Shown in pieces: positions 10,534 through 63,632 of a stretch of 64,000 nucleotides of DNA. A program made the translations under genes and the position numbers. The notes below the pieces were generated by a model, which worked only from the letters and a program-made list of their open reading frames with translations, was not told the DNA's origin and searched no databases. This DNA is from Mobula hypostoma (Eukaryota): contig NC_086097.1 in the NCBI RefSeq assembly GCF_963921235.1, positions 102,302,001 to 102,366,000 of the forward strand. Direction: 5' to 3'. Each line of letters begins with the position of its first letter. Position 1 is the first letter of the stretch.

Positions 10534-10689
10534 AGGCGACTATCCTTTTATGTAGGGGAGTAAGATGTTTTCCCATGTTATCAACTGGGACAATTCTAAT
10601 ATTGCCTGGTTTTTCACTGGACACTCAATCTCAGGATAATATATGGTGACGTATCTGTATTTTGATAAGAAATTTGCTTTGAACTTTTA

Positions 10690-16213: not shown

Positions 16214-16309
16214 ACAACAGGAATTCTGCAGATGCTGGAAATTCAAGCAACACACATAAAAGTTGCTGGTGAACGCAGCAGGCCAGGCAGCATCTGTAGG
16301 AAGAGGTAC

Positions 16310-16345
16310 AGTCGACGTTTCAGGCCGAGACCCTTCGTCAGGACT
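16310..16345 (-). ncRNA. Minimal type I hammerhead ribozyme (Penelope pLTR)
   Basis: AGTC-CTGACGA-AGGGTCTCGGCCT-GAAA-CGTC-GACT: stem I AGTC/GACT, intact core, stem II, palindromic ACGT stem III, GUC cleavage triplet. Confidence 0.8.
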
Positions 16346-19905: not shown

Positions 19906-19941
19906 AGTCCTGACAAAGGGTCTCGGCCTGAAACGTCGACT
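19906..19941 (+). ncRNA. Hammerhead ribozyme motif with mutated core (CTGACAA)
   Basis: Same sequence as the copy at 16310-16345 except core G8>A at 19915. Confidence 0.65.
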
Positions 19942-20094
19942 GCACCTCTTCCTACAGATGCTGCCTGGCCTGCTGCGTTCACCAGCAACTTTTATGTGTG
20001 TCGCAGGCACTGTAATACTGGTACACTAACCAGAATGCAACCAGAAGTGTAACTTTGGTAGGTAGGATGGGAGTTGTCTGTTCATGGAGACAGT

Positions 20095-27849: not shown

Positions 27850-29065
27850 TCAGAGGCTTGTGACTTTTTAGAGCAGCTTGTGTTTGAGCCTACTCAGGGA
27901 AAGGCTATCTTAGATTGGGTGTTGAGTAATAGCCCAGATCTTATTAGGGAACTTAATGTAAAGGGACCCTTAGGAAGCACTGATCATAATATGATTGAAT
28001 TCATACTGCAATTTGAGAGGGAGAGAAGTCAGATGTGTCAGTATCACAATGGAATAAAGGGAATTAGAGGCATGAGAGAGCAGCTTGTCAAGGTGGACTG
28101 GAGGAGGATACTGGCGGAGATGGCTGAGGTTTCTGGGAATAGTTCACAAGGTGCAGGATAGATATGTCCCACAGAAGATGTAGTTCTCAAATAAGCAGGG
28201 GTAGGCAACCATGGCTGACAAGGGAAGTTAAGGACTGCATAAAAGCCAAGGAAAAGGTATGTAAGGTAGCAAAAGTGGGTGGGAAGTTGGATGATTGGGA
28301 AGCTTTTAAAATCCAACAAAAGGCAACTAAAAAGCTATTAGAAGGGAAAAGATGAATATGAGGGCAAACTAGCCAATAATATAAAGCAGGATACTAAAGG
28401 TTTTTTCATTTATATAAAGAGTAAAAGGAAGGTGAGAGTTGATATTGGACCACTGGAAAATGATGCTGGTGAGATAGTAATGGGGAACAAAGAAATGGTA
28501 GATGAACTTAATGAGTACTTTACATCAGTCTTCACTGTGGAAGACACTAGCAGCGTGCCAGAGAGCAGGAGAGATGCTTCCATTGTTATTACAAAGGAAA
28601 AAGTGCGAGGCAGATTCGGGTGGATAAGTCACCTGGACCAGATGGACCACATCCCAGAGCCCTGAGAGAGGTTGCTGACGAGATTGATCATGATCTTTCA
28701 AGAATCACTTGATTCTGGCATGGTCCCGGAGAACTGGAAGATTGCAAATGTCACTCCACTCTTTAAGTGGGGAGGAAAACAAAAGAAAGGAAATTAAATG
28801 CTAGGTAGTCTAACCTCGGTAGTTGGGGAATTTCTGGGGCCTATTATTAAGGATGAGGTTTTGAGGTACTTGGAGACTAATGATAAAATAAGTCAGAGTC
28901 AGCATGGTTTCTGTAAAGGGAAATCTTGGCTGACAAATCTGTTAGTGTTCTTCGAGGAAGCAATAAGTAGGGTGGACAAATGAGAGGGGGTATCCACAAC
29001 TAGGGGACACAGCCTGAAAATTGAAGGGCGACTTTTTAGAACAGAGATAAGGAGGATTTTTTTTT
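27850..29065 (+). mobile_element. CR1 LINE fragment (EN to RT, internally deleted) inside the Gypsy
   Basis: LGSTDHNMIEF, RQPWLTREVK, NEYFTSVFT, SQHGFCKGKSWLTNL, then a jump to the TRGHSLK 3' region. Confidence 0.85.
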
Positions 29066-29070
29066 AGCAC

Positions 29071-32000: not shown

Positions 32001-32800
32001 CTAGCTCTCTAAATTCACTTTTCAGGACCGCTTTGCTTTTCCTTCCTATGTCATTGGTACCAATATGTACCAAGACATCTGGCTGCTCTCCCTCCTTCTC
32101 CAAAATGTTGTGGACACGATCTGAGATATATCTGACCCCGGCAACATACCATTTGGGTGTCCTGGTCATGTCCACAGAATCTCCTGTCTGTTCCCCTCAC
32201 TATTGAGCCCCTATCTCCCATGCTATCTCCACTCCCCTCTTCTCCCATGCTCAGTGCCAGTAACCTGGTCTCCGTGGCATTCCTCCAGGAGGTCATCCCC
32301 AACAGCACTTATTATTGATGGGAATGGCACAAGGGTGCTCTGTGCTAACTGCCTCTTCACATTTCCATTTCTCCCGACAGTCACCCAGCTACCTGCCTCC
32401 CGCAACTTCTCTGTAATTCTGATCGATTATCTCCCCAATCTCCCATACAAGCCAAAGGTCACCCAGCTGCACCTGGATGCACTTTACGCAGATGTAATGC
32501 CCTGGGAGACTCAGTGCCTCCCAGAACTCCAACATCCGGCATGAAGAACACACACATTTACTACACTAGGTGGGATAAGAGAAAAGAAGAAAAGAAGGGA
32601 ACCCTTACAGAAACTTACCGAGAGCCAACGCCTCTTTTGAGCTGAAGTCTCCTTTGAGCCAAAGCCTGACACTCCCATTCTCACCACTGGCCCACTCCCA
32701 ATAATGGCCGCCCTGCTTGTCCCTGCTGCACTTTCAAACAAGTGTCGCTGACCTGCGAGAAACCTCATCGCTGTGGCCTGTTCCTGTTGCTGATTGGGCC
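29071..32800 (-). mobile_element. Near full-length CR1 (5'UTR, SGNH-esterase ORF1, EN, RT with core deletion)
   Basis: ORF1 motifs VHIGTND, FRFLDHWDLFW (31795-32175); EN/RT fragments 29768-31293; 3' end at 29071. Confidence 0.9.
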
Positions 32801-33555
32801 GTTGGAATTGATAGAGCAGACTTGAGTCTGGTTTGGGGTATGAAATATTTCAACCGGTGCATGCATGGGAGAGAGTTTACCCTCATTACTGATAATTAAC
32901 CACTGGTGTCCATTCTCACTCCACTAACAGCGGCAGCATGAGTACAGAGATGGGCTTCGTTTCCTGGAGGACACGATTACAAGATTGGATTCAAGAGGAC
33001 AACTAATCATGGGGCTGCTGAGGGATTGTCCCGATTACCCTTTGGAAAGGAGATACCTGGGACATTTACAGAAGAGGACGCTCCCTTTGGGATTTTCTCC
33101 TTAATGCAAAGTGAAAATCTCCTCTAGTAATGGCAGATATGATTCAAAGGGAAATCAGAAAAGACCACACCACACTGTCTCAGGTCTTCACGGCCACTCA
33201 AAATGGCTAAAAAGTGCAGCACAAATTCCAGTTCTCCCATTTTTACCAGTGCTGGGATGAACTTGCCCTTGACAGGGGTTGCCTTACGTGGGGATTGAGA
33301 GTTGTTGTACCATCTAAGCTGAGAGCCAGAGTGTTGGAGGGTCTACATGTCGGTCATCTAAGCATGGTAAAAATTAAAGTGTTGGCTCAAAGCTTTTTCT
33401 GGTGGCCTGGGATAGATCAGCAGATCGAGCAGCTTGTCATGCATTGTGCGGGATGCCAAAACATCCAGAAGATGTCAAGAACAGTTCTTATACCTCCCTG
33501 GGAATAGCCTGCATTGCCCTGGCAGAGGATTCATGTGGATTTTTTTTTCACCATA

Positions 33556-34968
33556 TCAAGGTAACAGCTTTTTCAGGTATGTAAAAACTAAAATAAGGAT
33601 GAGAGTGGATATAGAATCGCTAGAAAGTGAGGCCGGAGAAATAATAATGAGGGACAAGGAGATGGCAGATGAACTAAATGAGTATTTTGAATCAGTCTTC
33701 ACTGTGGAAGACACTAGCATATGTGTGAAGGAAGAAAAGTGAGTACAGTTACTATTACAAGGGAGAAGGTGCTCAAAAAGCTGAAAGACCCAAGGGTACA
33801 TAAATCACCCGGACCAGATGAACTGCACCCTAGGGTTCTGAAAAAGGTAGAGTTAGAGATTGTAGTGGCATTAGTAATAATATTTCAAAATCATTGGACT
33901 CTGGCAAGGTACCAGAGGACAGGAAAATTGCAAATATCACTGCACTCTTTAAGAAAGGAGAAAGGCAGCAGAAAGGAAATTATAGACCAGTTAGCCTGAC
34001 CTCAGTGGTTGGGAAGATGTTGGAGTCAATTGTTAAGGATGAGGTTGTGGAGTACTTGATGACACAGGACAAGATAGGATAAAGTCAGCATGGTTTCCTT
34101 AAGGGTAAATCTTGCCTGACAAACCTATTGGAATTCTTTGAGAAGATTACAAGTAGGATAGATAAAGGGGATGTAGTGGATGTTGTATATTTGGACTTTC
34201 AGAAGGCCTTTGACAAGGTGCCACACATGAGGCTGCTTACCAAGTTAAGAGTCCATATATTACAGGGAAGTTACTGGCATGATTAGAGCATTGGCTGATT
34301 GGTAGGAGGCAGTGAGTGGTATCCTTTTCTGATTGACTGCCAGGGACTAGTGGTGTTCTGCAGGGGTTGGTGTTGGGACTGCAGGTTAAGTTGCAGGGGA
34401 TGTGATGCTGAGGTTTTATTTGGCCCTGGTGAGGCCTCATCTTGAGTATTGTGAACAATTTTGGGCTCCTCATCTAAGTAAAGACGTGCTGGCATTGGAG
34501 AGGGTCCAGAGGTTATTCACAAGGATGATTCCGGGAATGAAAGGGTTATCATACGAGGAATGTTTGATGGCTCTGGGTCTGTACTCACTGGAATTCAGAA
34601 GGATGAGGGTGGCGGGGGGGTGAGTCTCATTGAAACCTTTCAAATGTTGAAAGGTCTGGACAGAGTAGATGTGGAAAGGATGTTTCCCATGGTGGGGGAA
34701 TCTAGGACAAGAGGGCACAGCCTCAGGATAGAGGGGCATCATTTACAACAGAAATGTGGAGAAATTTCTTTAGCCAGAGGGTGGTGAATTTGTGGAATAT
34801 GATATCACAGGCAGTTGTGGAGGCCAGGTCGTTGGGTGTATTTAAGGCAGAAATTGATAGATTCTTGATTGGACTTGGGGCTGAGGAGGGAGAAAAAGGA
34901 CCATCCATGATTGAGTGGTGGAGCAGACTTGATGGGCCAAATGGCCTAATTCTGCTCCTATATCGTAT
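33556..34968 (+). mobile_element. 5'-truncated CR1 of the same deleted subfamily as 29071-32800
   Basis: NYRPVSLTSVVGK, YLDFQKAFDK, RPHLEYCEQFW; deletion junction GTTGGGACTGCAGGTTAAGTTGCAGGGGATGTGATG. Confidence 0.9.
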
Positions 34969-38194: not shown

Positions 38195-39500
38195 TTGCCT
38201 TAATGTCTATTGCCCGGTAGCACTCACATCTACAGTGATGAAATGCTTTGAGAGGTTGGTTATGATGAGACTGAACTTCTGCCTCAGCAAGGACCTGGAC
38301 CCATTGCAATTTGCCTATAGCTACAATAGGTCAACGGCAGATGCAATCTTAATGGTTCTTCACACGGCTTTAGACCACCTGGACAATACGAAGACCTATG
38401 TCAGGATGCTGTTCATCGGCTATACGTAGCTCAGCATTTAACACCATCATTCCCACGATCCTAACTGAGAAGTTGCAGAACCTGGGCCTCTGTACCTCTC
38501 TCTGCAATTGGATCCTTGACTTCCTATTTGGAAGACCTCAGCTGGTGCGGATTGGTGATATCTCCTCCTCGCTGGTGATCAAAACTGGTGCACCTCAGAG
38601 GTGTGTGCTTAGCCCACTGCTCTATTCTCTCTATACCCATGACTGTGTGGCTAGGCATAACCCAAATACCATCTGTAAATTTGCTGATGATACAACCATT
38701 GTTGGTAGAATTTCAGGTGGTGACGAGAGGGTGTACAGGAGTGAGATATGCCAACTAGTGGAGTGGTGCCACAGCAACAACCTGACTCTCAATGTCAATA
38801 AGACAAAAGAGCTGATTGTGGACTTCAGGAAGGGTAAGATGAAGGAACACATACCAATCCTCATAGAGGGATCAGAAGTGGAGAGAATGAGCAGCTTCAA
38901 GTTCCTGGGTGTCAAGATCTCTGAGGACCTAACCTGGTCCCAACATATCAATGCATTTATAAAGAAGGCAAGACAGCGACTATATTAAGAGTTTGAAGAG
39001 ATTTGGTATGTCAACAAATACACTCAAAGTCTTCTGTAGATGTACCATGGAGAACATTCTGAGAGGCTGCATCACTGTCTGGTATGGAGGGGGGGGGGCT
39101 ACTGCACAGGACTGAAAGAAACTGCAGAGGGTTGTAAATTTAGTCAGCTCCATCTTGGATATTAGCCTACAAAGTACCCAGGACATCTTCAAGGAGTGGT
39201 GTATCGGAAAGGCAGTGTCCATTATTAAGGAGATACAGAAGCCTGAAGGCACACACTCAGTGATTCAGGAACAGCTTCTTCCCCTCTGCCATCCGATTCA
39301 TAAATGGACATTGAACCCATGAACACTACCTTGCTTTTTTAATATACAATTATTTCTATTTTTTGTACAATTTTAATCTATTCAATAAATTTATTTATTT
39401 ATTATTATTTTATTTTTATTTTTCTTATTCTATGTTATGTATTGCATTGAATGCTGTTGTGAAGTTAACAAATCTCACGACACATGCCGGTGATTCTGAT
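38195..39500 (+). mobile_element. Rex1/Babar-like LINE, 5'-truncated
   Basis: [57 protein letters not shown]. Confidence 0.9.
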
Positions 39501-42539: not shown

Positions 42540-43950
42540 ACCATAAAACCATAAGACATAGAATTAGGCCATTCAGCCCATCGAGTCTGCTCTGCCATCC
42601 CATCATGGCTGATCCTGGATTCCACTCAACCCCAAACACCAGCCTTCTCGCCATATTCTTTGACCAAACAGGGAACTATCAACTTCCACCTTAAATATAC
42701 CCACGGACTATGCCTCCACCACAGTCTGTAGCCGAGTGTTCCACAGATTCACTACTCTCTGGCAAAAAAATTCCTCCTTACCTCTGTTCTAAAAAGACAC
42801 CCCTCAATGCTGTGCCCTCTAGTTCTGGATACCCCCGCCATAGGAAACATCTTCTCCACATCCACCTTATCTTTTCCTTTCAACATTCAGTAGGTTTTAA
42901 TAAGATCCCCATGTGATGCCAAAAGCTCCTCATATGTTAACCCCTTCATTCCCAGAATCATCCTCATGAACCTTCTCTGGACTCTATGTGAAAAGCAGCG
43001 GTCCCAATACTGACCCTGGAGGAACACCACTAGTCACTGGCAGACAGCCAGAAAAGGCCTCTCCCCTTTATTCCCACTCGCTGTCAGCCAGTCCTCTATC
43101 CATGCCAATATCTTTACTATAATGCCATAGAATTTTATCTTGTTAAGGAGCCTCATGTGTGGCACCTGTCTCCTGAAAATCCAAGTAAATAACATTCACT
43201 GCCTCTTCTTTGTCCACCCTGCTTGTTTGAAGAACTCTAACAGATTTTTCAGGCAAGATTTCCCTATGCAGAAACCAAGTTGACTTTGAATTATTTTATC
43301 ATTAGTCTTCAAGTAGCCAGAAACCTTATCCTTAATAATGGACTCCGACACTTTCCCAACCACTGAGGTTAGGCTAACTGGCCTATAATTTTCTTTCTTT
43401 TGCCTTCCTCCCTTTGTAAAGAGTGGAGTGACACTTACAATTTTCCAGTCCTCCAGGACCATGCCAGAAACAAGTGATTCTTGAAAGATCATGACCAATG
43501 CATCTGTTATCTTTTCTGCAACTTTTCTCAGGACTCTGGGATGTAGTCCATCTGGTTCAGGTGACTGATCCACCTTATGATCATTGAGTTTGCCTGGCAC
43601 TTTTCCTTTGTAAACGGTAATGGCACTCGCTCCTGTTCCCTGACACTCACGGAACTCTGGCACACTGCTAGTGTCTTCCACAGCGTAGACAGATGCAAAA
43701 TGCCCATTAAGTTCATCTTCCATTTCTTTGTCCCCCATTACCACCTCACCAGCATCATTTTCCAGTGGTTCAATATCAACCCTCACCTCCCTTTTATTCT
43801 TTATATAATTGAAAAAAACCTTTAGTATCCTGCTTTATATTATTGGCTAGTCTGCCCTCATATTTCATCTTTTCCCTTCTAATAGCTTTTCTAGCTGCAT
43901 TTTGTTCGATTTTAAAAACTTCCCAATCATCCAACTTCCCACTCACTTTT
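42540..43950 (-). mobile_element. CR1 LINE 3' part (outermost host of the nest; 5' part at 51955-52720)
   Basis: ORF 43196-43786 (NYRPVSLTSVVGK, SCLKNLLEFF), CR1 3' end near 42545, internal deletions. Confidence 0.85.
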
Positions 43951-44298
43951 AAAAGTTGCTGGTAAACGCAGCAGGCCAGGCAGCATCTATAGGAAGAGGC
44001 GCAGTCGACGTTTCGGGCCGAGACCCTTCGTCAGGACTAACTGAAGGAAGAGTGAGTAAGGGATTTGAAAGCTGGAGGGGGAGGGGGAGATCCAAAATGA
44101 TAGGAGAAGACAGGAGGGGGAGGGATGGGGCCAAGAGCTGGACAGGTGATTGGCAAAAGGGATACGAGAGGATCACGGGACAGGAGGCCCAGGGAGAAGG
44201 AAAAGGGGGAGGGGGGAATCCCAGAGGATGGGCAAGGGGTATACTGAGAGGGACAGAGGGAGAAAAAGGAGAGACAGAGAAAGAATGTGTGTGTATAT
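43951..44298 (-). mobile_element. Penelope element 3'/pLTR part, split by the Gmr1-type Gypsy
   Basis: Nearly the same as 16258-16625; continues at 51389-51954. Confidence 0.9.
44003..44038 (-). ncRNA. Minimal hammerhead ribozyme, intact core
   Basis: AGTC-CTGACGA-AGGGTCTCGGCCC-GAAA-CGTC-GACT. Confidence 0.8.
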
Positions 44299-45198
44299 TG
44301 TTACGTACCCCGTAACTGGGTTGCCAAACCAGCAGAACTAGATCACTCAGTTGGAGTCTGGATTACTGGAACTAAGAAAGTTTTATTAAAGAAATAAGCA
44401 ACACAGTACTCTAATAGTAAGGATATAAATGCAACAGGTTAGCACTGAATAAACACACATGTACACAGAACTAGGATAATAGGATCAATCAAGCTCTATC
44501 GCAGTCTAGGGGTAAAATGTTCAATCACAAGTGACAGAGTTCAGTTTAGTTCAGTTCGCAGCAATCGTTGTTGTGCCGTTGAAGAGAGAGAGAGAGAGAG
44601 AGAGCGAGCGAATGCTGATATTCAAAATCGGATTCAACAGACCTTTGATATTTCTTGCAGTTAGCTTTCGGGCAAGCCCTTTGTAATGTCACCGACTGTG
44701 ACCCCTCCGTTTCCAGATACAATCGTTCCTCTGCGGTGAACCCAGCACCCAGGCAAGGGCGGACACACACCAGGTTCCCGCCGACCGCATCTTTCCACCC
44801 TGTGCGTCTATGGCTGGTCCCGCGACCAGCCCCCCCAAAAACCCCCACCGACTTGTGGGGGCGCACCGCTTCCAGGGTCTCGATACCTCGTGGTGTCGTG
44901 AGTGGTGTCTCGTGTGGTGTCTGTTGCCTTAGCGAACCCATCCCTTTTTATCCCCCTGTTGGGGTGTCTCCTGTCCATCACTTCAAACAGTTCAGGTTCA
45001 AAGCAAACCAGTCTTGACAATACCCAGACAGGTGTCTCCTTCCGTTAATCTCTCTCGTCTCTTCATTAACATTTCCAAATGCTGCTCCATTGTCTTACTT
45101 ATCTCTCTCTCCTGAAGACAGGTGGCAGATCAACTGTTGATCCCACTGGTGATAGCACAGGACAGTCAACATCTTAATCTATGTATACTTTCGTCACA
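44299..45198 (-). repeat. 3' LTR of the Gmr1-like element
   Basis: Direct repeat of 50480-51388. Minus-strand TATA-like GATAAAAAGGG (~44942-44952) and AATAAA (44382-44387); preceded by the PPT. Confidence 0.92.
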
Positions 45199-45314
45199 CC
45201 CCTCTCCTTCAAGGATTTTTACCGGGGTAAAAATTATAAGCATGAATACATTATTAGATATACACAAATATACATCTTCATCAGCTATTTGGCTAATACA
45301 GAGAATTTTAAGTT

Positions 45315-46457
45315 GTCAACACCTTGACAGACAGTCAGCAATCACATTTTCCGTTCCTTTTATATGTGTAATTTTAATAATCCTTTAAACCAGGCTCCAA
45401 TTTAGCAAACTTCATAGTGGCCGAAAACACTGATGAATCGTGATCAGTGTAACCTCTCATTGGGTTTCGTTCCGGACCACGATAACAAGGGTCGTCCCAT
45501 CCCGACTTAGTTTTCTTTCGCAAGGGCTTAGTAGGAGGGGGAGGGGTAGTACCAGCAAAGTTATTGCAAAACTTCCTACAGTACCCCACCATCTCCAAGA
45601 GCCTTCTGAGGGCCCTCTTGTCTGTCGGGGTTGGGATGTCAGAGATAGCCCGCACCTTAGCTTGCATCGCTGCCAGCTGCCCCTGTGTCACCACAATTCC
45701 CAGATAAGTGACCTTCGCGTGGCCGAACTCATTTTTTTCAAGGTTCACTATCAAGCTGGCTTCAGACAGCCGTATTACATTGCCAATATACACTTCTGTG
45801 TTCTTTAGCCCTTTCGTCACAGAATTACTCATTCTATAGGACTGTTGCTCACTAGGCTGACCTAACGTGACAAACACCACCCAACGTCCCAGTTCTTTGC
45901 ATCACCTCGGGACAATCAAACACATGTGTGTGAGCCATTTAATTAACTCTCCTAAAGAGTCGCTTTGTTTGGGGATTAAGGGAGAGACCTTATCAGCAGA
46001 GCTGGCCAAAACAATAGCCTTCTCTCATCTGGTTAGTACCATACTCACCTTTTCAAAATGGCTTTTCCCCTTATCAGGTGGCACCCTAGCTTCATTGATT
46101 TCCGTGCTAACACCGACTAGGTTTGTTAGCATATCAAAAGCCTGTGACCATCTCAGTTCGCGTCTGCAATAATCAATAACATCCTTCCTCCTGTGCAGCC
46201 ACAAAAACTCTCTCATGGCTTCGCCAACTGTTTCCTTCAGCACCTCAAAATGTCCACCGAGGGGTACTTTGTGGGCCAGGTTAAAAATCTCATCCCCATA
46301 ACTCTTTTGCACCACCCCCCATTCCTCATCTGCGGTACTTGGTCTCCCTTTCTTCCTTAGCACACCCTCCTCCACACAATAGCCTACTGGCTCTCTTTTT
46401 AATCTTGCTTCAGAGAGAGCTGTTTCCTCGTCTCGCTCCTGTACCTGTATAAAGTCC
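45315..46457 (-). pseudogene. Deleted pol remnant of the Gmr1-like element (integrase Zn finger, partial RT, RNase H C-terminus)
   Basis: AHKVPLGGHF...FLW...DVIDYCRR (46025-46375); VNLEKNEFGHAKVTYLG...LRRLLEMVGYCRKF (45374-45880); HIKGTENVIADCLSRC* at ~45315-45365. Confidence 0.8.
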
Positions 46458-46464
46458 TTCTTTT

Positions 46465-48601
46465 ATGCAATGGCAGGCATTTAAAGGTTGCATGGATGAA
46501 CTACAACAATTGTTCATCCCAGTTTGGCAAAAGAATAAATCAAGGAAGGTAGTGCACCCGTGGCTGACAAGAGAAATTAGGGATAGTATCAATTCCAAAG
46601 AAGTAGCATACAAATTAGCCAGAGAAAGTGGCTCACCTGAGGACTGGGAGAAATTCAGAGTTCAGCAGAGGAGGACAAAGGGCTTAATTAGGAAGGGGAA
46701 AAAAGATTATGAGAGAAAACTGGCAGAGAACATAAAAACGGACTGTAAAAGCTTTTATAGATATGTAAAAAGGAAAAGACTGATAAAGACAAATGTAGGT
46801 CCCCTGCAAACAGAAACAGGTGAATTGATTATGGGGAGCAAGGACATGGCAGACCAATTGAATAATTACTTTGGTTCTGTCTTCACTAAGGAGGACATAA
46901 ATAATCTTCCAGAAAAATAGTAAGGGACAGAGGGTCCAGTGAGATGGAGGAACTGAGCGAAATACATGTTAGTAGGGAAGTGGTGTTAGGTAAATTGAAG
47001 GGATTGAAGGCAGATAAATCCCCAGGGCCAGATGGTCTGCATCCCAGAGTGCTTAAGGAAGTGGCCCAAGAAATAGTGGATGCATTAGTGATAATTTTTC
47101 AAAACTCGTTAGATTCTGGACTAGTTCCTGAGGATTGGAGGGTGGCTAATGTAACCCCACTTTTTAAAAAAGGAGGGAGAGAGAAACCGGGGAATTATAG
47201 GCCGGTTAGCCTAACGTCGGTGGTGGGGAAACTGCTGGAGTCAGTTATCAAGGATGTGATAACAGCACATTTGGAAAGCGGTGAAATGATCGGACAAAGT
47301 CAGCATGGATTTGTGAAAGGAAAATCATGTCTGACGAATCTCATAGAATTTTTTGAGGATGTAACTAGTAGAGTGGATAGGGGAGAACCAGTGGATGTGG
47401 TATATTTGGATTTTCAAAAGGCTTTTGACAAGGTCCCACATAGGAGATTAGTGTGCAAACTTAAAGCACACGGTATTGGGGGTAAGGTATTGGTGTGGGT
47501 GGAGAATTGGTTAGCAGAGACAGGAAGCAAAGAGTGGGAATAAACGGGACCTTTTCAGAATGGCAGGCGGTGACTAGTGGGGTACCGCAAGGCTCAGTGC
47601 TGGGACCCCAGTTGTTTACAATATATATTAATGACTTGGATGAGGGAATTAAATGCAGCATCTCCAAGTTTGCGGATGACACGAAGCTGGGTGGCAGTGT
47701 TAGCAGTGAGGAGGATGCTAAGAGGATGCAGGGTGACTTGGATAGGTTGGGTGAGTGGGCAAACTCATGGCAGATGCAATTTAATGTGGATAAATGTGAA
47801 GTTATCCACTTTGGTGGCAAAAATAGGAAAACAGATTATTATCTGAATGGTGGCCGATTAGGAAAAGGGGAGGTGCAACGAGACCTGGGTGTCATTATAC
47901 ACCAGTCATTGAAAGTGGGCATGCAGGTACAGCAGGCGGTGAAAAAGGCGAACGGTATGCTGGCATTTATAGCGAGAGGATTTGAGTACAGGAGCAGGGA
48001 GGTACTACTGCAGTTGTACAAGGCCTTGGTGAGACCACACCTGGAGTATTGTGTGCAGTTTTGGTCCCCTAATCTGAGGAAAGACATCTTTGCCATAGAG
48101 GGAGTACAAAGAAGGTTCACCAGATTGATTCCTGGGATGGCAGGTCTTTCATATGAAGAAAGACTGGATGAACTGGGCTTGTACTCGTTGGAATTTAGAA
48201 GATTGAGGGGGGATCTGATTGAAACGTATAAGATCCTAAAGGGATTGGACAGGCTAGATGCGGGAAGATTGTTCCCGATGTTGGGGAGGTCTAGAACGAG
48301 GGGTCACAGTTTGAGGATAGAGGGGAAGCCTTTTAGGACCGAGGTTAGGAAAAACTTCTTCACACAGAGAGTGGTGAATCTGTGGAATTCTCTGCCACAG
48401 CAAACTGTTGAGGCCAGTTCATTAGCTATGTTTAAAAGGAAGTTAGATATGGCCCTTGTGGCTACAGGGGTCGGGGGGTATGGAGGGAAGGCTGGGTTCT
48501 GAGTTGGATGATCAGCCATGATCATAATAAATGGCGGTGCAGGCTCAAAGGGCCGAATGGCCTACTCCTGCACCTATTTTCTATGTTTCTATGTTTCTAT
48601 G
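46465..48601 (+). mobile_element. Young 5'-truncated CR1 inserted in the Gmr1 ORF, 7-bp TSD TTCTTTT
   Basis: TSD at 46458-46464 and 48602-48608. ORF2 in three frames (46465-46920, 46944-47543, 47495-48502), (TTCTATGT)n tail, same subfamily as 9081-10533. Confidence 0.95.
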
Positions 48602-50379
48602 TTCTTTTCTATTGATAAATCTACCTTAATTTCCCCACTTCCTCCTGTTTCATTATGCTCCTTCTTTTCACTTTCTACCCCCTCCTCGTACAAGGCTGGT
48701 AGAAACGTCTCAGCAGCCTCTCTGGACATACAGCGAGTCACTGCGCAAACAGGATGAACCTGTGAGTCCATGGGCGGGGCCTCAATGCTGACAGGCTGAC
48801 CTGTCAATCTCACTGCCGAGAACACAATTCCCCTGGCAAGGTCATTACCGAGCAAGACTTCCACGCCTTTCATCGGTAATTCGGGCCTCACCCCGATCGT
48901 GACTAGTCCAGAGACCAAGTTGCTTTGTAGGTGTATCTGGTGCAAAGGGACTGCTTCTGTCCCTTCCCCAATACCTTTGACCCTGACCTCCCCAGTCTGG
49001 GTCTCTGAGCTAAACTCTAACACACTCTTCAATATCAATGACTGACACACTCCCATGTCTCTCCAGATCCGTACTGGAACTGGGTTTAACCCCTCCTTCA
49101 CTAACACCACACCGGCCGAGATAAACCTCTCGCGCCCTTCCTGAACTTTGGCAGACCTTTCCTCTCCTAGCGGTTCGTTTACCAGCATGATACAGCCAGT
49201 CGAAATCGCCGTTTTTCCTTTCCCTGTCTCCTTCTTTGGGGCAAAGCACCTGGACACAAAGTGTCCGACTTTCCCACAATTATAACAGACGACCCCAGGA
49301 GACTTCCTACCAGACTGCTCCTGGTCTACCTTATCCTTCTCACTCTTCCCCGGCTTACTTACTGACTTTTCCGGCGGACTCTCCCCGCCGTCCTGACTAC
49401 CCTTCTGGTAGCCTTTACTCGGGGCAAACTTCATTTTATGCGTCAACGCATACTCATCCGCTAACTTAGCAGTTGCGGCTAACATGGCTGCCTCTTTCTC
49501 ACCTAGGTAGGGTCTCATACCGTCAGGGACACAACCTTTAAACTGCTCAATCAGGATCAGCTGTAGCAGTCTGTCATAATCCCCAATTACCCCCTTCGAG
49601 GCGCACCAATGCTCACAATATGTCTGCATCTCACGGGCAAACTCTAAATACGTGCGGTCCCACTGTTTCCTCGCATTCCGGAACCTCTGCCGGTATGCTT
49701 CCGGGACCAACTTATAAATCCTGAGGATGGCCTCTTTCACCACCTCATACCTCTGGGCATCTTCCGCGGACAAAGCTGAGTAAGCTTGTTGGGCTTTTCC
49801 TTTAAGTACACTCTGAAGCAAAACAGCCCACTTATCCCTCGGCCAGTCCTGACTTGCAGCAACTTTTTTGAAATGAAGAAAGTACCGATCCACATCGGTA
49901 TCGTCAAATGGGGGAACCAGCCTAACCTCCTGGGTCGCCCTGAACCCTCCACCTTGGTCTGACATGGGTCCCTGTTCTGCCCTTATCTTTAACCTTTCCA
50001 GCTCGAATTCCCTTTCCCTCTGTTTCTCCTCTTGCTCCAACTGCCTCTCTTTCTCTCTCTCCTGCCGTTCTAACTGTTTCTCTTTCTCTTCGTGTTCTAG
50101 CTGCCGTACCCGGAACTCGTGCTCGAATCTCAGTTTTTCAAGCTGCACCTGTACTGCGTCTCCACTAGGTTTTCCAATAGACACCATCCCCAGCTCCCCT
50201 TGGGGAAACACACCTTTAGATACATAGTGCTCTACGATAGCTCCGTGTATCTCCTCTCTCCTCATTGTCGACTTCCCCTTAACAAGATTCAACCGTTTGG
50301 CCACAGCTGCCAATTCCGCTTTCCTGGCATCCTCTAATGCCTCCAAGTTCGGTGCCTTTAGAAATTCCTCATTCTCCAT
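48589..50379 (-). CDS. Retrotransposon Gag (coiled coil, SCAN-like capsid, CCHC knuckle) plus aspartic protease, 596 aa, truncated by the CR1 insertion
   Basis: Open frame from a true ATG: VPPFDDTDVDRYFLHF..VA....WP...W, VPEAYRQRFR, LILIEQF, CYNCGKVGHFVSRC, protease-like RDMG...LLGND. Confidence 0.85.
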   Translation of the reverse strand: MENEEFLKAPNLEALEDARKAELAAVAKRLNLVKGKSTMRREEIHGAIVEHYVSKGVFPQGELGMVSIGKPSGDAVQVQLEKLRFEHEFRVRQLEHEEKEKQLERQEREKERQLEQEEKQREREFELERLKIRAEQGPMSDQGGGFRATQEVRLVPPFDDTDVDRYFLHFKKVAASQDWPRDKWAVLLQSVLKGKAQQAYSALSAEDAQRYEVVKEAILRIYKLVPEAYRQRFRNARKQWDRTYLEFAREMQTYCEHWCASKGVIGDYDRLLQLILIEQFKGCVPDGMRPYLGEKEAAMLAATAKLADEYALTHKMKFAPSKGYQKGSQDGGESPPEKSVSKPGKSEKDKVDQEQSGRKSPGVVCYNCGKVGHFVSRCFAPKKETGKGKTAISTGCIMLVNEPLGEERSAKVQEGRERFISAGVVLVKEGLNPVPVRIWRDMGVCQSLILKSVLEFSSETQTGEVRVKGIGEGTEAVPLHQIHLQSNLVSGLVTIGVRPELPMKGVEVLLGNDLARGIVFSAVRLTGQPVSIEAPPMDSQVHPVCAVTRCMSREAAETFLPALYEEGVESEKKEHNETGGSGEIKVDLSIEKNIET

Positions 50380-50479
50380 TTCTGCTGTTTGCCTTTTCTT
50401 TCTTTCGGGAATTTTAACCCAATCAATTTACCCCGTCCCCAAATTTAGTGTTCAAAATCGCGGACGAGAACCCCACTTA

Positions 50480-50761
50480 TGTTACGTACCCTGTAACTGG
50501 GTTGCCAAACCAGCAGAAATGGATCACTCAGTTGGAGTCTGGATTACTGGAACTAAGAAAGTTTTATTAAAGAAATAAGCAACACAGTACTCTAATAGTA
50601 AGGATATAAATGCAACAGGTTAGCACTGAATAAACACACATGTACACAGAACTAGGATAATAGGATCAATCAAGCTCTATCGCAGTCTAGGGGTAAAATG
50701 TTTAATCACAAGTGACAGAGTTCAGTTTAGTTCAGTTCGCAGCAATCGTTGTTGTGCCGTT

Positions 50762-50794
<33 letters not shown>

Positions 50795-51388
50795 AAATGC
50801 TGATATTCAAAATCGGATTCAACAGACCTTTGATATTTCTTGCAGTTAGCTTTCGGGCAAGCCCTTTGTAATTTCTTCTGAGGTCACCGACTGTGACCCC
50901 TCCGTTTTCAGATACGATCGTTTCTCTGCGGTGAACCCGGCACCCAGGCAAGGGTGGACACACACCAGGTTCCCACCGACCGAATCTTTCCAACCTGTGC
51001 ATCTATGGCTGGTCCCGTGACCAGCCCTCCAAAACTCGCACGACTTGTGGGGGCGCACTGCTTCCAGGGTCTCGATACCTCGTGGTGTCATGAGTGGTGT
51101 CTCGTGTGGTGTCTGTTGCCTTAGTGAACCCATCCCTTTTTATCCCCCTATTGGGGTATTGCCTGCCAATCACTTCAAACAGTTCAGGTTCAAAGCAAAC
51201 CAGTCTTGACAATACCCAGATCGGTGTCTCCTTCCGTTAATCTCTCTCGTCTCTTCATTAACATTTCCAAATGCTGCTCCATTGTCTTACTTATCTCTCT
51301 CCTGAAGACAGGTGGCAGATCAACTGTTGGTCCCACTGGTGATAGCACAGGACAGTCAAATTCTTAGTCTATGTGTACTTTCGTCACA
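50480..51388 (-). repeat. 5' LTR of the Gmr1-like element
   Basis: Direct repeat of 44299-45198, followed on the minus strand by the PBS TGGGGTTCTCGTCCGCGAT. Confidence 0.92.
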
Positions 51389-51954
51389 ATATAAATAAAT
51401 AACGGATGGGGTACGAAGGGGAGGTGGTGCATTAACGGAAGTTAGAGAAGTCAATGTTCATGCCGTCAGGTTGGAGGCTACCCAGACGGAGTATAAGGTG
51501 TTGTTCCTCCAACCTGAGTGTGGCTTCATCTCTACAGTAGAGGAGGCCGTGGATAGACATATCAGAATGGGATTGGGACATGGAATTAAAATGTGTGGCC
51601 ACTGGGAGATCCTGCTTTCTCTGATGGACAGAGCGTAGGTGTTCAGCGAAACGATCCCCCCGTCTGCGTCGGGTCTCGCCAATATATAGAAGCCCACATC
51701 GAGAGCACCGGACCCAGTATATCACCCCAGCCAGCCCACAGGTGAAGTGTCGCCTCACCTGGAAGGACTGTCTGGGGCCCTGAATGGTGGTGAGGGAGGA
51801 AGTGTAAGGGCATGTGTAGCACTTGTTCCGCTTACACGGATAAGTGCCAGGACGGAGATCAGTGGGGAGGGATGGGGGAGATGAATGGACAAGGGAGTCA
51901 CGTAGGGAGCGATCCCTGTGGAAAGCGGGGGGGGGGGAGGGAAAGATGTGTTTA
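51389..51954 (-). mobile_element. Penelope element GIY-YIG part (continuation of 43951-44298)
   Basis: ORF 51432-51971: PCKRNKCYTC...VIYWVRCSRCGLLYIGET...QPDGMNIDF. Confidence 0.9.
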
Positions 51955-52720
51955 GTCAGCTCCTCTCTCATGCCTCCGTAATTCCCTTTACTCTACTGTG
52001 ATACTGATACATCTGACTTTTGCTTCTCCCCCTCAAATTGCAGTATGAATTCATACGATCGCTGCCTCAAAAGGGTTCCTTTACATTAAGCTTCCTAATA
52101 AAATCTGGGTTTTTACAATCTAAAACAGCCTTTCTTTTTTAGCTGCTCTAAAAAGCCATCTTGCAGGCATTCATAAGTTTCCTCTCTTGTGATCCGACAC
52201 CAATCTGATTACCCAATCCACTTGCATATTTGTCCCCCATTACAATTGTGTCATTACCCATATTACATATCTTTTTCAGATCCCCTTGCAATCTCAAACC
52301 CACACCTTTGCTACTATTTGGAGGCCTATATCTGATTCCCGTAAAGTTTTATTTTAACTTTTCAGTTTAACTCCACCCACAAAGATTCAACATTTTCTGG
52401 CCCTATGTCACCTTTCTAAAGATGTAATTCCATCTCTTACCAACAGAGCCACACCACTGCCTGTGCCTTCCTGCCTGTCCTTTCAATACAGAAGTATATC
52501 TTTTGTTGTTAAGCTCCCAACTATGGCCTTCTTTCAGCCACGTCTCAGTGATGCCCACACGTTATACTGACCAATCTCTAATTGCCCTAAGAGTTCATCC
52601 ACCTTATTCCAAATGCTGCGTGCATTTAAATACAGCACCTTCAGTCCTGCATTCTTTTCCCTTCTGAATTTTGCCTCTGTGGTACAACTTAGCTCTGTCT
52701 GCATCTGTACCCAATAGCAC
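51955..52720 (-). mobile_element. CR1 endonuclease region (5' continuation of 42540-43950)
   Basis: GLKVLYLNARSIWNKVDEL; colinear with the + copy at 27880-28085. Confidence 0.75.
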
Positions 52721-55639: not shown

Positions 55640-56365
55640 TTAGAAACATAAAAAACCTACAGCACAATACAGGTCCTTCGGCCCACAAAGCTGTGCCAAA
55701 CATGTCCTTACCTTAGAACTACCTAGGCTTACCCATAGCCCTCTATTTTTCTAAGCTCCATGTACCCATCCAGGAGTTTCTTAAAAGACCCTATCGTTTC
55801 CACCTCCACCACTGCCACCGGCAGCCCATTCCATGCACTCACCACTCTCTACATAAAAAAACGTAACCCTGACATCTCCTCTGTACCTACTTCCACGCAC
55901 CTTAAAAGTACGCGCTGTCGTGCTAGCCATTTCAGCCCTGAGAAAAAAGCCTCTGACTATCCACATGATCAATGCCTCTCATTAGCTTGTACATCTCTGT
56001 CAGGTCACATCTCATACTCCGTCGCTCCAAGGAGAAAAAGCCGAGTTCACTCAACCTATTCTCATAAGACATGCTCGCCAATCCAGGCAACATCTTTGTA
56101 AATCTCTGCACCCTTCCTATGGTTTCCACATCCTTCCTGTAGTGAGGCAACCAGAATTGAGCACAGTGGTCCAAGTGGGATCTGACCAGCATCCTATATA
56201 TCTGCAACATTACCTCCCGGCTCTTAAACTCAATCCCACGGCTGATGAAGGTCAATGCACCGTATGCTTTGTCAACCTGCGTAGCAGCTTTGAGTGTCCT
56301 ATGGACTCAGACCCCAAGATCCCTCTGATCCTCCAAACTGCCAAGAGTCTTACCATTAATGCTGA
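55640..56365 (-). mobile_element. CR1 LINE 3' fragment
   Basis: FISRGIEFKSREVMLQ...HLDHCAQFW; 3' end near 55640. Confidence 0.85.
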
Positions 56366-56379
56366 ACTCCATTTGCCAC

Positions 56380-58690
56380 TTAAAATTTGCCAGTTAAAAT
56401 TGGCATGTAGCAAAGGTAATGCTACAGTTGTTATGAGGGATTTCAACATGCAGGTAGATTGGAAGAATCAGGTTGGTACTGGACCCCAAGAAAGGGAGTT
56501 TGTGGAGTGCCTCCGAGATGGATTCTTAGAACAGCTTGTACTGGAGCCTACCAGAGAGAAGGCAATTCTAGATTTAGTGTTGTGCAATGAACCAGATTTG
56601 ATCAGGGACCTCGAGGTAAAGGAGCCATTAGGAGGTAGTGACCATAATATGATAAGTTTTAATCTACAATTTGAGATGGAGAAGGGAAAATCAGAAGTGT
56701 CAGTATTATAGCTGAACAAAGGGAACTATGGAGCTATGAGGGAGTAGCTGGCTAAAGTTCAATGGAACAATACCCTAGCAGGGATGACAGTGGAACAACA
56801 ATGGCAGGTATTTCTGGGAATAATGCAGAAGGTGCAGGATCAGTTAATTCCAAAGAGGACGAAAGATCCTAAGGGGAGTAAAGGGAGGCCATGGCTGACA
56901 AGGGAAGTAAAGGGCAGTATAAAAATAAAAAAGTAGTATAACATAGCAAAGATGAATGGGAAGCCAGAGGATTGGGAAACTTTTAAAGAGTAACAAAAGA
57001 TAACTAAAAAGGCAATACGTGGAGAAAAAATGAGGTATGAAGGTAAACAAGCCAAGAATATAAAGGAGGATAGTAAAAGCTTCTTTAGGTATGTGAAAAG
57101 GAAAAAAATAGTTAAGACCAAAATTGGGCCCATGAAGACAGAAACAGGTGAATTTATTATGGGGAACAAGGAAGTGGCAGACGAGTTGAACAGGTACTTT
57201 GGATCTGTCTTCACTAGAGAAGACACAATCTCCCAGGTACAATAGTGGCCAAAGGACCTAGGGTAATGGATGAACTGAAGGAAATTTATATTAGGCCGGA
57301 AATGGTGTTGGATAGACTGTTGGGTCTGAAGGCTGATAAGTCCCCGGGACCTGATGGTCTGCATCCCAGGGTACATAAGGAGGTGGCTTTAGAAATCGTG
57401 GACGCATTGGTAATCATTTTCCAATGTTCTATAGATTCAGGATCAGTTCCTGTGGACTGGAGGGTGGCTAATGTTGTCCCACTTTTCAAAAAAGGGAGAG
57501 AGAAAACAGGGAATTATAGACCGGTTAGCCTGACGTCAGTGGTGGGGAAAGATGCTGGAGTCAATTATAAAAGATGAAATTACGACATATTTGGATAGCA
57601 GTAACAGGATAGGTCCGAGTCAGAATGGATTTACGAAGGGGAAATCATGCTTGACTAATCTTCTAGAATTTTTTGAGGATGTAACTATGAAAATGGACAA
57701 GGGAGAGCTAGTGGATGTAGTGTACCCGGACTTTCAGAAAGCCTTTAATAAAGTTCCACATAGGAGATTAGTAGGCAAAATTAGGGCACATGGTATTGGG
57801 GGCAGAGTACTGACATGGATTGAAAATTGGCTGGCAGACAGGAAACAAAGAGTAGCGATTAATGGGTCCCTTTCGGAATGGCAGGCGGTGACCGGTGGGG
57901 TACTGCAGGGTTCAGTTCTGGGACTGCAGCTGTTTACAATATACATTAATGATTTAGATGAATGGATTAAAAGTAACATTAGCAAATTTGCAGATGACAC
58001 AAAGCTGGGTGGCAGTGTGAAACGTGAGGAGGATGTTATGAGAATGCAAGGTGACTTGGACAAGCTGGGTGAGTGGGCGGATGCATGGCAGATGCAGTTT
58101 AATGTGGATAAATATGAGGTTATCCACTTTGGTGGTAAGAACAGGAAGGCAGATTATTATCTAAATGGAGTCAAGTTAGGAAAAGGGGAAGAACAACGAG
58201 ATCGAGGTGTTCTTGTACATCAGTCATTGAAAGCAAGCATGCAAGTACAGCAGGCAGTGAAGAAAGCTAATGGCATGCTGGCCTTCATAACAAGGGGAGT
58301 TGAGTATAGGAGCAAAGAGGTCCTTCTGCAGCTGTACAGGGCCCTTGTAAGACCACACCTGGAGTATTGTGTGCAGTTTTGGTCCCCAAATTTGAGGAAG
58401 GATGTTCTTGCTATTGAGGGAGTGCAGCATAGGTTCACAAGGTTAATTCCCGGGATGGCAGGACTGTCATATGTTGAAAGATTGGAGTGACTGGGCTTGT
58501 ATCCACTGGAATTTAGAAGGATGAGAGGGGATTTGATTGAAACATATAAGATTATCAAGGGATTGGACACGCTGGAGGCAGGAAGCATGTTCCTGCTGAT
58601 GGGTGAGTCCAGAACCAGAGGCCAGAGTTTAAGAATAAGGGGTAGGCCATTTAGAACAGAGTTGAGGAAAAACTTTTTCACCCAGAGAAC
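56380..58690 (+). mobile_element. CR1 LINE ORF2 (EN-RT), decayed, 3' end missing
   Basis: DFN, LGGSDHNMI, NYRPVSLTS, KFADDTKLGG, RPHLEYCVQFW; ends abruptly at NFFTQR. Confidence 0.92.
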
Positions 58691-60790
58691 GTACCTATGC
58701 AGAACTCCATACAAATATCCCCTGAACATTTGCTACATTTCTTCCATACCTTTCCCTGAGAACATCTGTTTCCCATTTAAGCTTCCAAGTTCCTGCCCGA
58801 TAGCCTCATAATTCCCCTTACTCCAATTAAATGCTTTTCTAACTTGTCTGTTCCCATCTCTCTCCAATGCTATTGTAGAGGAGATAGAATTATGATCACT
58901 ATCTCCAAAATGCTCTCCCTCTGAGAGATCTGACACCTGAGCAGGTTCATTTGCCAATACCAAATCAAGTACAGCCTCTCCTCTTGGAGGCTTATCTACA
59001 TATTGTGTCAAGAAACCTTCCTGAACACACCTAACAAACCCCACCCCATCTAAACCCCTTGCTCTAGGGAGATGCTAATCAATATTTGGGAAATCAAAAT
59101 CTCCCACAACTCTGTCATCATTACACCTTTCCAGGATCTGTTTCCCTATCTGCTCCTTGATATCCCTGTTACTATTGGGTGGCCTATATATAAAAAAAAA
59201 CACCCAGTAGAGTTATTGACCCCTTCCTATTCCTACCTTCCACCCACTGAGACTCCGTAGACAACCCCTCCATGACTTCCTCCTTTTCTGCAACCGTGAC
59301 ACTATCTCTGATCAGCAGTGCCACGCCCAACCTCTTTTGCCTCCCTCCCTGTCCTTTCTAAAACATCTAAAGCCTGGCACTTGAAGTAGCCATTTCTGTC
59401 CCTGCGCCATCCAAGTCTGTAATGGCCACAACATCATAGCTCCAAGTACTGATCCACGCTGTAAGGTCATCCACTTTGTTCATAATACTCCTTGCGTTAA
59501 AACAGTCACATCTCAAACCATCGGTCTGAGCGTGTCCCTTCTCTATCACCTGCCTATCCTCCCTCTCGCACTGCCTCCAAGCTTTACTCTATTTGTGAAC
59601 CAACTGCCCTTCCTCCATCACTTCAGTTCGGTTCCCACCCTCCAGCAATTCTAGTTTAAACTCTCCCCAACAGCCTTAGCAAACATCCCCGCCAGGATAT
59701 TGGTACCCCTCAGGTTCAAGGGCAACCTGTCCTTTTTGTACAGGTCACACCTGCCCCAAAAGAGGTCCCAATGATCCAGGAATCTGAATCCCTGCCCCCT
59801 GCTCCAATCCCTCAGCCACACATTCATCCTCCACCTGATTCTATTCCTATACTCACAGTTGCGTGGCACAGGCAGTAATCCCGAGATTACTATCTTTGTG
59901 GTCCTACTTCTCAACTTCCTTCCTAACTCCCTGCAGTCTGTTTTCAGGACCTCCTCCCTTTTCCTACCATGTCGTTGGTACCAATATGTACCATGACCTC
60001 TGGCAGTTCTTCTTCCCACTTCAGGATATCATGGATGCGATCAGAAACATCCCAGACCCTGGCACCTGGGAGGCAAACTACCATCAGCGTTTCTGTCCTG
60101 CATCCACAGAGTCGCCTGTCTGACCCCCTAACTATAGAGTCCCCTATCACTGCTGCCATCCTCTTCCTTTCCCTACCCTTCTGAGCCACAGGGCCACACT
60201 TCGTGCCAGAAGCGCGACCACTGTTGTTTCCCCCAGGTAGATCAACCCCCGCAACAGCACTCAAACAGGACTACTTACTGTTAAGGGGGACAGCTGCTGG
60301 GGTACTCTCTAGCATCCGCCTCCTGCCCTTCCCTCTCCTGACTGTTACCCACTTCTCTGTCTCCTGTGGCCCTGGAGTGACTACCTGCCTATAGCTCCTC
60401 TCTATCACCTCCTCACTTACCCTGACCAGATGAAGGTCATTAAGCTGCATCTCTAGTTCCCTAATGCAGTCCCTAAGGAGCTGCAGCTTGATGCACCTGG
60501 TGCAGATGTGGCTGTCCAGGAGGCTAGCAGTCTCCCAGACCTCCCATATCTGACACCCATCACAGAAAACTGGCCTCACACACATACTTTCTGTCTGTAT
60601 TCCACACAAGAAACCTACCTCGCCTCAACCCTTTATTGCCGAAGCCCCATTGAGCCAAAGCCTTCCTACTCTGACTCCCTCTACTCTGACACCCACTGTA
60701 TAAGGCTGCCCTCTTTTTAAACTCTTGTTGTTCTCACTGGCTGACCTCCACGTGCTTGCGTAGTCATGCCCCGTTCAAATCGCTGAAGAA
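58691..60790 (-). mobile_element. CR1 LINE 5' portion: 5'UTR, ORF1 (Zn finger, coiled coil, SGNH esterase), EN start
   Basis: CDGC...HICTRC plus heptad repeat (60271-60609); VIGDSIVRG...CLPGA...VHIGTND (59944-60264); FNARSIMNKVDDL; FGDSDHNSI. Confidence 0.9.
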
Positions 60791-62218: not shown

Positions 62219-63632
62219 CAGTTGAAGTCAGAAGTTTACATACACTTAGGTTGAAACTCATTGTTTAACCACACCACAGATTTCATATTAGCAAACTATA
62301 GTTTTGGCAAGATGTTGAGGACATCTACTTTGTGTATGACATGAGTAATTTTTCCAACAATTGTTTACAGACAGATTATTTCAGTTTTAATTGACTATAC
62401 CACAATTCCAGTGGGTCAGAAGTTTACAAACAAAATCAAAAGAAATCAGCCAAGACTTCAGAAAAAAAATTGTGGACCTCCACAAGTCTGGTTCATCCTT
62501 GGGAGCAATTTCCAAACGCCTGAAGGTACCACGTTCATCTGTACAAACAATAGTACGCAAGTATACATACCATGGGACCACGCAGTCGTCATACTGCTCA
62601 GGAAGGAGGTGCATTTTGTCTCCTAGAGATGAACGTACTTTGGCGTGAAAAGTGCAAATCAATCCCAGAACAACAGCAAAGGACCTTGTGAAGATGCTGG
62701 AGGAAACAGGTGGACAAGTATCTATATACACAGTAAAACGAGTCCTATATCGAAATAAACTGAAAGGCTGCTCAGCAAGGAAGAAGCCACTGCTCCAAAA
62801 GTGCCATGAAAAAGCCAGACTACAGTTTGCAAGTGCACATGGGGACAAAGATCTTACTTTTTGGAGAAATGTCCTCTGGTCTGATGAAACAAAAATTGAA
62901 CTGTTTGGCCATAATGGCTATCGTTACGTTTGGAGGAAAAAGGGTGAGGCTTGCAAGCCGAAGAACACCATCCCATCCGTGAAGCGTGGGGGTGGCAGCA
63001 TCATGTTGTGGGGGTGCTTTGCTGCAGGTGGGACTGGTGCACTTCACAAAATAGATGGCATCCTGAGGAAGGAAAATTATGTGGATATATTGAAGCAACA
63101 TCTAAAGACATCAGCCAGGAAGTTAAAGCTCGGTTGCAAATGGGTCTTTCAAATGGACAATGACCCCAAGCATACCTCCAAAGTTGTGGCAAAATTGCTT
63201 AAGCACAACAAAGTCAAGGTATTGGAGTGGCCATCACAAAACCCTGACCTCAATCTGATAGAAAATTTGTGGACAGAACTGAAAAAGCGTGTGTGAGCAA
63301 GGAGGCCTACAAACCTGACTCAGTTACACCAGTTCTTGTGAGAAGCTTGTGGAAGGCTACCCAAAGCATTTGACCCAAGTTAAATAATTTAAAGGCAATG
63401 CTACCAAAGTGTATGTAAACTTCTAACCCACTGGGAATGTGATGAAAGAAATAAAAGCTGAAATAAATCATTCCCTCTACTATTATTCTCACATTTCATA
63501 TTCTTAAAATAAAATAGTGATCCTAACTGACCTAAGACAGGGAACTTTTTCTAGGATTAAATGTCAGGCATTGTGAAAAACTGAGTTTAAATATATTTGG
63601 CCAAGGTGTATGTAAACTTCTGACTTCAATTG
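62219..63632 (+). mobile_element. Tc1/mariner DD34E DNA transposon, Sleeping Beauty-like IR/DR family, defective
   Basis: TA TSDs (62217-62218, 63633-63634). Terminal CAGTTGAAGTCAGAAGTTTACATACAC with an inverted copy at the right end; inner DRs at ~62407-62428 and ~63409-63436. Confidence 0.95.
62432..63408 (+). pseudogene. Tc1 transposase pseudogene
   Basis: KSKEISQD.RKKIVDLHKSG HTH region, WSDE / MDND / IEN catalytic DD34E, WPSQNPDLN. Start codon deleted, TGA stops at 62646-62648 and 63294-63296, small C-terminal deletion. Confidence 0.92.

Follow-up and report, generated by a model that had tools for sequence, protein, structure and literature searches.

A long terminal repeat (LTR) retrotransposon in the ray Mobula hypostoma belongs, with a probability of roughly 0.85, to a non-autonomous Gmr1-type Ty3/Gypsy family, as one of its decayed copies; the nearest named members of that family are from Mobula. 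The element occupies the minus strand from 51388 to 44299 of the window, the 64,000-nucleotide stretch of contig NC_086097.1 that was analyzed (assembly GCF_963921235.1, positions 102,302,001 to 102,366,000). An ancestor of the family would have lost the catalytic cores of integrase (IN), reverse transcriptase (RT), and RNase H (RH) by three large in-frame deletions, with later master lineages gaining smaller ones. The family appears to have retained its LTRs, a polypurine tract (PPT), and a site resembling a primer binding site (PBS), as well as one reading frame that encodes Gag, with a SCAN capsid and a zinc knuckle, followed by protease (PR) and a dead IN/RT/RH tail. It would make its own capsid, favoring packaging of its own RNA. 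RT and IN would be supplied in trans by an autonomous Gmr1 relative, as expected from the biology of LTR elements: the family has none of the cores, but the LTR ends, PPT, and target site duplication (TSD) are correctly made. The window copy is now broken by a CR1 insertion and by two internal stops, and its protease motif is altered.

The deleted form was properly inserted, with a TSD and paired LTRs, and is common to many loci. Comparison of the two LTRs places the 5′ LTR at 50480..51388 (909 nt) and the 3′ LTR at 44299..45198 (900 nt), both on the minus strand and both reading TG...CA. Over 895 aligned sites they differ by 35 substitutions, 24 of them transitions (10 CpG-type), and there are 5 gaps; the Kimura two-parameter distance is 0.040. 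The tetranucleotide ATAT is found on either flank, at 51389..51392 upstream and 44295..44298 downstream, and a PPT (45199..45210, minus strand) adjoins the 3′ LTR. These features of LTR retrotransposon insertion had been described in a first-pass annotation, made by a model from the sequence, and its account of complete LTRs, a 4-bp TSD, and a PPT stands. It had also called the PBS complete, which holds only for the placement. A PBS-like tract lies 4 nt beyond the 5′ LTR (50455..50475, minus strand), but it looks degenerate, and Rfam gives no tRNA match for it, only one chance match. The tract may resemble a tRNA-Pro PBS, with mismatches. tRNA genes predicted by ARAGORN numbered 0. The substitutions between the LTRs are unevenly spread (29 of 35 within the first 500 nt, 6 within the last ~410), which could reflect CpG content, gene conversion, or a template switch.

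The element is nested in a host repeat with RT and GIY-YIG sequences, putatively Penelope-like; its GIY-YIG and RVT_1 Pfam matches are weak and below cut-off. The part upstream of the insertion lies at 51393..51992 (minus strand) and the other part at 43950-44294, and two other copies in the window (16257-16855 and 19084-19994) cross the insertion point uninterrupted, as empty sites. Longer copies of this repeat are present at 17575-19994 and 16257-16855, and the open RT stretch is 543 codons.

The missing enzymes were delineated by comparison with the closest full-length relatives among the matches listed, P0143 and P0144, which are 41-42% identical in Gag-PR and whose Pfam domains are ordered SCAN, zinc knuckle, IN, RT, and RNase H. 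Relative to P0144, the family is without residues ~764-1051 (the zinc-finger cysteines, DDE core, and most of the C-terminal domain of IN), ~1173-1298 (the N-terminal half of RT), and ~1433-1519 (the RNase H core). The remnants map in order onto residues 670-762 (IN), 1051-1172, 1299/1338-1432 (RT), and 1520 onward (RH).

In the window, all remnants lie on the minus strand. The IN zinc-binding remnant (46160..46457) harbors both histidines and ends before the two cysteines, with an Integrase_H2C2 Pfam score of 20.9, below the cut-off of 25.5; the junction of the ~290-aa IN deletion is near 46160. The IN end and IN-RT linker (45830..46159) contain two internal stops, at 46027-46025 and 45904-45902, and reach the junction of the ~128-aa RT deletion near 45830. 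The C-terminal RT remnant (45485..45829) has a degenerate YxDD catalytic site and an 18-aa deletion near 45772, and the 87-aa RNase H deletion has its junction near 45485. Within the RNase H tail (45316..45484), the frame terminates at 45376-45374 because of a frameshift common to the family; in another frame, what was once the end of pol runs on to ~45316. No rve, RVT_1, or RNase H Pfam match was found in the pieces of the window element or in P0009 and P0137. The catalytic IN, RT, and RNase H cores that mark an autonomous Gmr1 element are all three deleted, in line with the first-pass report that the IN DDE core, much of RT, and most of RNase H were missing.

IN upstream of RT defines Gmr1, according to the cited portions of two accounts (PMC8220671, 10.1101/2025.03.03.638093). 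Since the remnants map IN before RT-RH and the SCAN domain scores 45.9 bits, the Gmr1-type assignment of the first-pass annotation is upheld, as an assignment from domain order and the SCAN capsid rather than from RT phylogeny, the tree described below being of Gag-PR only. Another Gmr1 relative, P0264 from Hypanus sabinus, has a different and smaller deletion just past the IN zinc-finger histidines, a loss that arose independently and very close to the one in the ray family here.

Membership in a family is indicated by shared junctions. A protein search gave 530 matches among 8000 candidates, the best being Mobula gene models at 78-85% identity. Among 346 proteins, the IN junction of the window recurs in 15 from M. 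hypostoma, on 12 contigs told apart by length, and in P0263 from M. birostris, as the first-pass suggestion of a family that moved already deleted had foreseen. P0263 has the three large deletions, but two stretches that are gone in the window and the M. hypostoma copies, one of 18 aa in RT and one of 7 aa, are still present in it; the deletions thus accumulated stepwise. Public contigs bridge the IN junction (run X17 record 17 and run X15 record 9) and both RT junctions (run X4 record 25), and all 30 bins of the element are covered in all four runs (X1, X4, X15, and X17), run depth not being copy number. In runs X1 and X17, contigs join 46457 to 48602 with a 7-letter overlap, skipping the CR1. 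The deletions are thus present, and the CR1 absent, in other copies. One contig, X1 record 1 (2405 nt, matching the LTR start only), was considered as a second locus and dropped, as the compared stretch is without the upstream flank of the element.

The insertion itself is a 5′-truncated long interspersed nuclear element (LINE) of CR1 type, an RT element at 46465..48601 on the plus strand, antisense to its host, which makes the first break in the frame. Identical 7-bp TSD copies at 46458-46464 and 48602-48608 bear out its placement in the first-pass annotation. It is 95-96% like a window copy at 9206-10535, which would make it roughly as old as the divergence of the two LTRs.

The Gag-protease part of the family frame (48602..50379, minus strand) comprises 592 stop-free codons, delineated from the open reading frame, Pfam, and an AlphaFold2 (AF2) model. 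It contains, in order, N-terminal helices, a long helix rich in E/R/K/Q, the capsid, a zinc knuckle, the protease, and a linker. The SCAN domain, corresponding to the C-terminal part of the capsid (residues 226-315, 49435..49704, minus strand), matches PF02023 with an E of 5e-12 and 45.9 bits against a cut-off of 27. The CCHC zinc knuckle (residues 364-378, 49246..49290, minus strand) matches PF00098 at 24.3 against 20.8. The profile check proposed in the first-pass annotation therefore places SCAN and zf-CCHC above their cut-offs and Integrase_H2C2 below its own. A sequence search of the PDB gave only weak nucleocapsid and SCAN matches, the knuckle being weakly like retroviral nucleocapsids. 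In the AF2 model, residues ~420-515 (48835..49122, minus strand) adopt a retropepsin fold, with a best Foldseek E of 7e-4 against retroviral proteases. The capsid fold drew no structural support, Foldseek of the whole model giving proteases in all matches shown.

The catalytic motif of the protease, at 49059-49051, is altered in the window copy. Among 120 matches, the canonical triad is found in 110, the form of the window in 1, another form in 1, and none in 8, suggesting that the alteration is almost private to this copy; CpG decay is a plausible source. The number of repeats in the long helix (Gag residues 74-135, 49975-50160) differs between copies and explains most of the spread in length of the family protein, 939-1004 aa.

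The two pieces flanking the CR1 (1778 and 433 nt) share a phase, are each stop-free up to 46027, and sum to 2211 nt, as the first-pass annotation had calculated. It took this sum for a 736-aa unit that was intact until one CR1 insertion, which is not the case: the copy has the two internal stops besides the CR1, and the frame goes on to 45374, with a third stop at 45376-45374, spanning 953 codons outside the CR1 by coordinates. Of 16 junction-bearing relatives, 13 read beyond the first stop, 12 beyond the second, and 8 end at the third, the read-through counts being inflated because the relatives were found as annotated long frames. At position 46025, another letter accounts for at least 99.8% of the depth in each of the four runs: 169908 of 170123 units in X1 and the whole depth in X4, X15, and X17. 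The stop at 46027-46025 is private to the window copy, and the 736-aa frame is therefore an artefact, rejected as the family protein. In M. hypostoma, five models of 939-1004 aa start at Met and continue as far as the family end, with identities of 96.1-98.0%. P0005, P0006, and P0008 leave the family frame within the RT remnant. The family frame is thus one of 939-1004 aa that passes through dead IN/RT/RH remnants.

The tail has kept its frame through repeated loss. Compared with relatives, nine indels in the window tail preserve the frame (three large; four shared ones of 5, 7, 18, and 1 aa; two of 6 and 2 aa in the window copy only), and the single frameshift lies ~11 codons before the stop, itself 176 nt before the 3′ LTR. 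Nine of ten would occur with a chance of ~4e-4 if one third of indels keep frame, a hand calculation in which compensated shifts are invisible and the relatives are annotation-biased. Young members add further in-frame losses of 6 and 4 aa. For 77 residue differences, ~4-5 stops are expected, with 0 found in young members and 2 in the window, at least one of them private; the probability of two or fewer is 0.12-0.23, which makes the stop count weak on its own. An X4 contig exchanges 102 nt for 12 at window positions 45873-45976, a net 90 nt and a multiple of three, possibly a further in-frame deletion subfamily.

It is about an even chance that, as the lineage passed through its nested pol deletions in two or more Mobula species, selection has held these ~360 codons of catalytically dead pol in the Gag-PR frame. 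Such selection might, with the odds equally balanced, target translation itself or how far it reaches, through cis-packaging or escape from RNA decay, and not the tail sequence. A somewhat less probable account accepts the non-autonomous family and regards the open tail as incidental, master copies having avoided frameshifts by chance and annotation displaying the open ones. The relatives are indeed gene models chosen for long frames, the first stop position is not reached by 3 of 16 and the second is not reached by 4 of 16, P0005, P0006, and P0008 exit the frame, and one frameshift is common to the family. Against a merely incidental tail are the nine frame-keeping indels, with the only shift so close to the stop, and, more weakly, the deficit of stops.

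Selection on Gag-PR was assessed at conserved positions, defined by a profile of 32 full-length non-Mobula proteins. In young members, 17-18 of 122 such positions are changed in Gag-PR versus 24-25 of 61 in IN/RT (p 7e-5 to 3e-4); in P0137 the counts are 17/122 in Gag-PR and 24/61 in the IN+RT remnant (p 3e-4). The IN-intact P0017 has 16/113 changed in Gag-PR and 22/151 in IN/RT, and P0021 has 13/73 and 12/69. Between the window and five young members, identity is 91-93% in the capsid (154-158/170), 86-87% in the protease, and 73-75% in the remnant. The gap between capsid and remnant has a p of 5e-6 or lower in all five, and it is absent from the IN-intact pair P0021/P0017 (p 0.68). These relative rates of protein change support a constraint on Gag-PR while the pol remnant decays in family members, which agrees with the first-pass proposal of a family that keeps its own capsid. 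By keeping Gag, the family probably steers packaging toward its own RNA.

The conservation of Gag-PR could alternatively result from template switching with a helper, which would refresh the sequence in place of selection on the family's own Gag. Recombination between co-packaged RNAs is established for LTR elements, and co-packaging with a helper makes it likely here. It has been reported for Athila in the cited portion of one study (PMC2410132). A Gag-PR tree of 36 rows, leaving out P0263, P0028, P0130, and P0133, bears on this alternative in both directions. Two rows of unknown pol status nest within the deleted clade, as refreshment would predict, although the only such rows to lie there are ones that end before the junction (P0013, P0018, and P0022 end before it). 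All 14 deleted rows fall in that one clade (support 96/83), in a ladder with the window near its base, and the only two rows that reach the IN core, P0021 and P0017, lie outside. Moreover, the best of this pair is only 84% (C-terminal half of SCAN) and 74% (protease) identical to the window. Refreshment is therefore unlikely.

The history of the window copy after its insertion appears to be one of neutral change. Its near-fixed gag-PR differences from public contigs are 17 nonsynonymous and 5 synonymous, with a neutral share of 71-77%; the count is a sample, 40 of 471 difference rows having been shown, and it excludes the break site, the CR1 rows, two out-of-frame sites, and two gag-PR sites with a share <0.9. 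That the locus is a domesticated SCAN/gag host gene is very improbable and was rejected. The SCAN match above cut-off and the 592-codon open piece would suit such a gene, but the LTRs are paired and 4% apart, a TSD is present, and the element is nested in another repeat. In addition, the private changes fit a neutral ratio, the near-invariant positions 171, 223, 442, and 444 are altered, and there are no KRAB or C2H2 Pfam domains and no zinc-finger array after SCAN. Least tenable of all, and practically dismissed, is ordinary decay of this one copy after insertion, the outcome that the first-pass annotation had named as fatal to its own reading: private damage does exist, but the junctions are common to 16 proteins of two named species and are bridged by contigs from two organisms.

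Several observations weigh against the reading of a non-autonomous family with a constrained Gag-PR and a decaying tail. The window Gag-PR has 20 of 126 conserved positions changed, only slightly above the 17-18 of 122 in young members. Residues 44-116 of the RT remnant are 85-90% identical between the window and young members, a level equal to that of the protease, and this speaks against a tail free of all constraint. The 17:5 figure comes from a sample, and the read-through counts are inflated as described. Other family loci are known from gene models, which could hide splices or corrections, and these copies were compared as proteins. No full-length ray helper was found among 120 listed of 435 longer matches (best 41-42% identity), which is weak evidence; ray fragments that bear the IN core do exist (P0021 and P0017).

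Models named as isoforms of MACC1, PPM1Lb, PISD, and UBE2G2 (P0009, P0135, P0011, and P0131) fall in the family, and P0009, P0135, and P0011 are element sequence throughout or nearly so. They represent either artefacts of annotation or fusions of element transcripts with host genes. Copies of the element family are thus found among the gene models of Mobula, in several cases and sometimes under the name of a host gene. On one 44-Mb contig of M. birostris, P0018, P0140, P0141, and P0142 are near-identical SCAN/protease models of 384-413 aa with several accessions each, a possible tandem array or co-option candidate. The rest of the window is rich in CR1-type LINE fragments of several ages (7000-11400, 27800-34700, 42700-43800, and 55800-58700) and holds another RT fragment at 38374-38988. 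A Tc1/mariner-type transposase fragment of 215 codons (62649-63296) has HTH_Tnp_Tc3_2 and DDE_3 matches above cut-off.

Gmr1-like elements are reported to be abundant in fish genomes (10.1101/2025.03.03.638093). In the cited sections, Gmr1-like Ty3/Gypsy elements have the same layout as the ray family, with the SCAN capsid followed by PR, IN, and RT-RH in one frame (10.1101/2025.03.03.638093, PMC8220671). The ray family differs in being without ~500 aa of pol, including all catalytic cores, and in having a degenerate remnant. The SCAN link of Gmr1-like elements is already known. New here is a parasite family of the Gmr1 clade that retains gag, has both old and young members, lost sequence in stages, and keeps a frame through dead enzyme sequence. 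No account of this family was found in the open-licence PMC and bioRxiv literature; Repbase, Dfam, and genome-paper supplements were outside that scope and may contain it.

Known defective LTR families resemble the ray family in different ways. In mouse, the in-frame gag-pol fusion protein of the intracisternal A-particle (IAP) subtype 1Δ1 is reported to be cis-acting, and the subtype spreads well (PMC6466679, PMC7411935). As described in the cited parts of those papers, IAP 1Δ1 is likewise non-autonomous, with an internal deletion that leaves one gag-pol fusion frame. It is a class II endogenous retrovirus (ERV), and its one 1.9-kb deletion also removes part of gag, whereas the ray family is a cartilaginous-fish Gypsy with gag and protease whole and several nested deletions, for which cis action would be an analogy. 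The plant TR-GAG and GAG-PROT non-autonomous families retain Gag, in some cases together with protease, sugar beet has families whose RT/RH/INT remnants are decayed (both PMC13570524), and purifying selection on gag is reported for pol-less Athila (PMC2410132). So far as these excerpts go, such plant families share with the ray family a kept Gag without working enzymes. They differ in belonging to plant lineages, and a remnant in the form of one long fusion frame is undescribed in the cited portions of PMC13570524 and PMC2410132. ERVL-MaLR, as covered in part of PMC11359688, is a vertebrate pol-less LTR family with gag homology; it is derived from ERV-L, and no in-frame pol remnant or SCAN capsid is described there.

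By analogy with these systems, the ray family would work like known gag-retaining non-autonomous LTR families. Whether indels and stops are purged from its tail matters for the question of how a defective LTR element can outcompete its helper. If selection does hold the tail in frame, the family would offer a natural, datable deletion series bearing on the cis effect that IAP 1Δ1 is reported to have.

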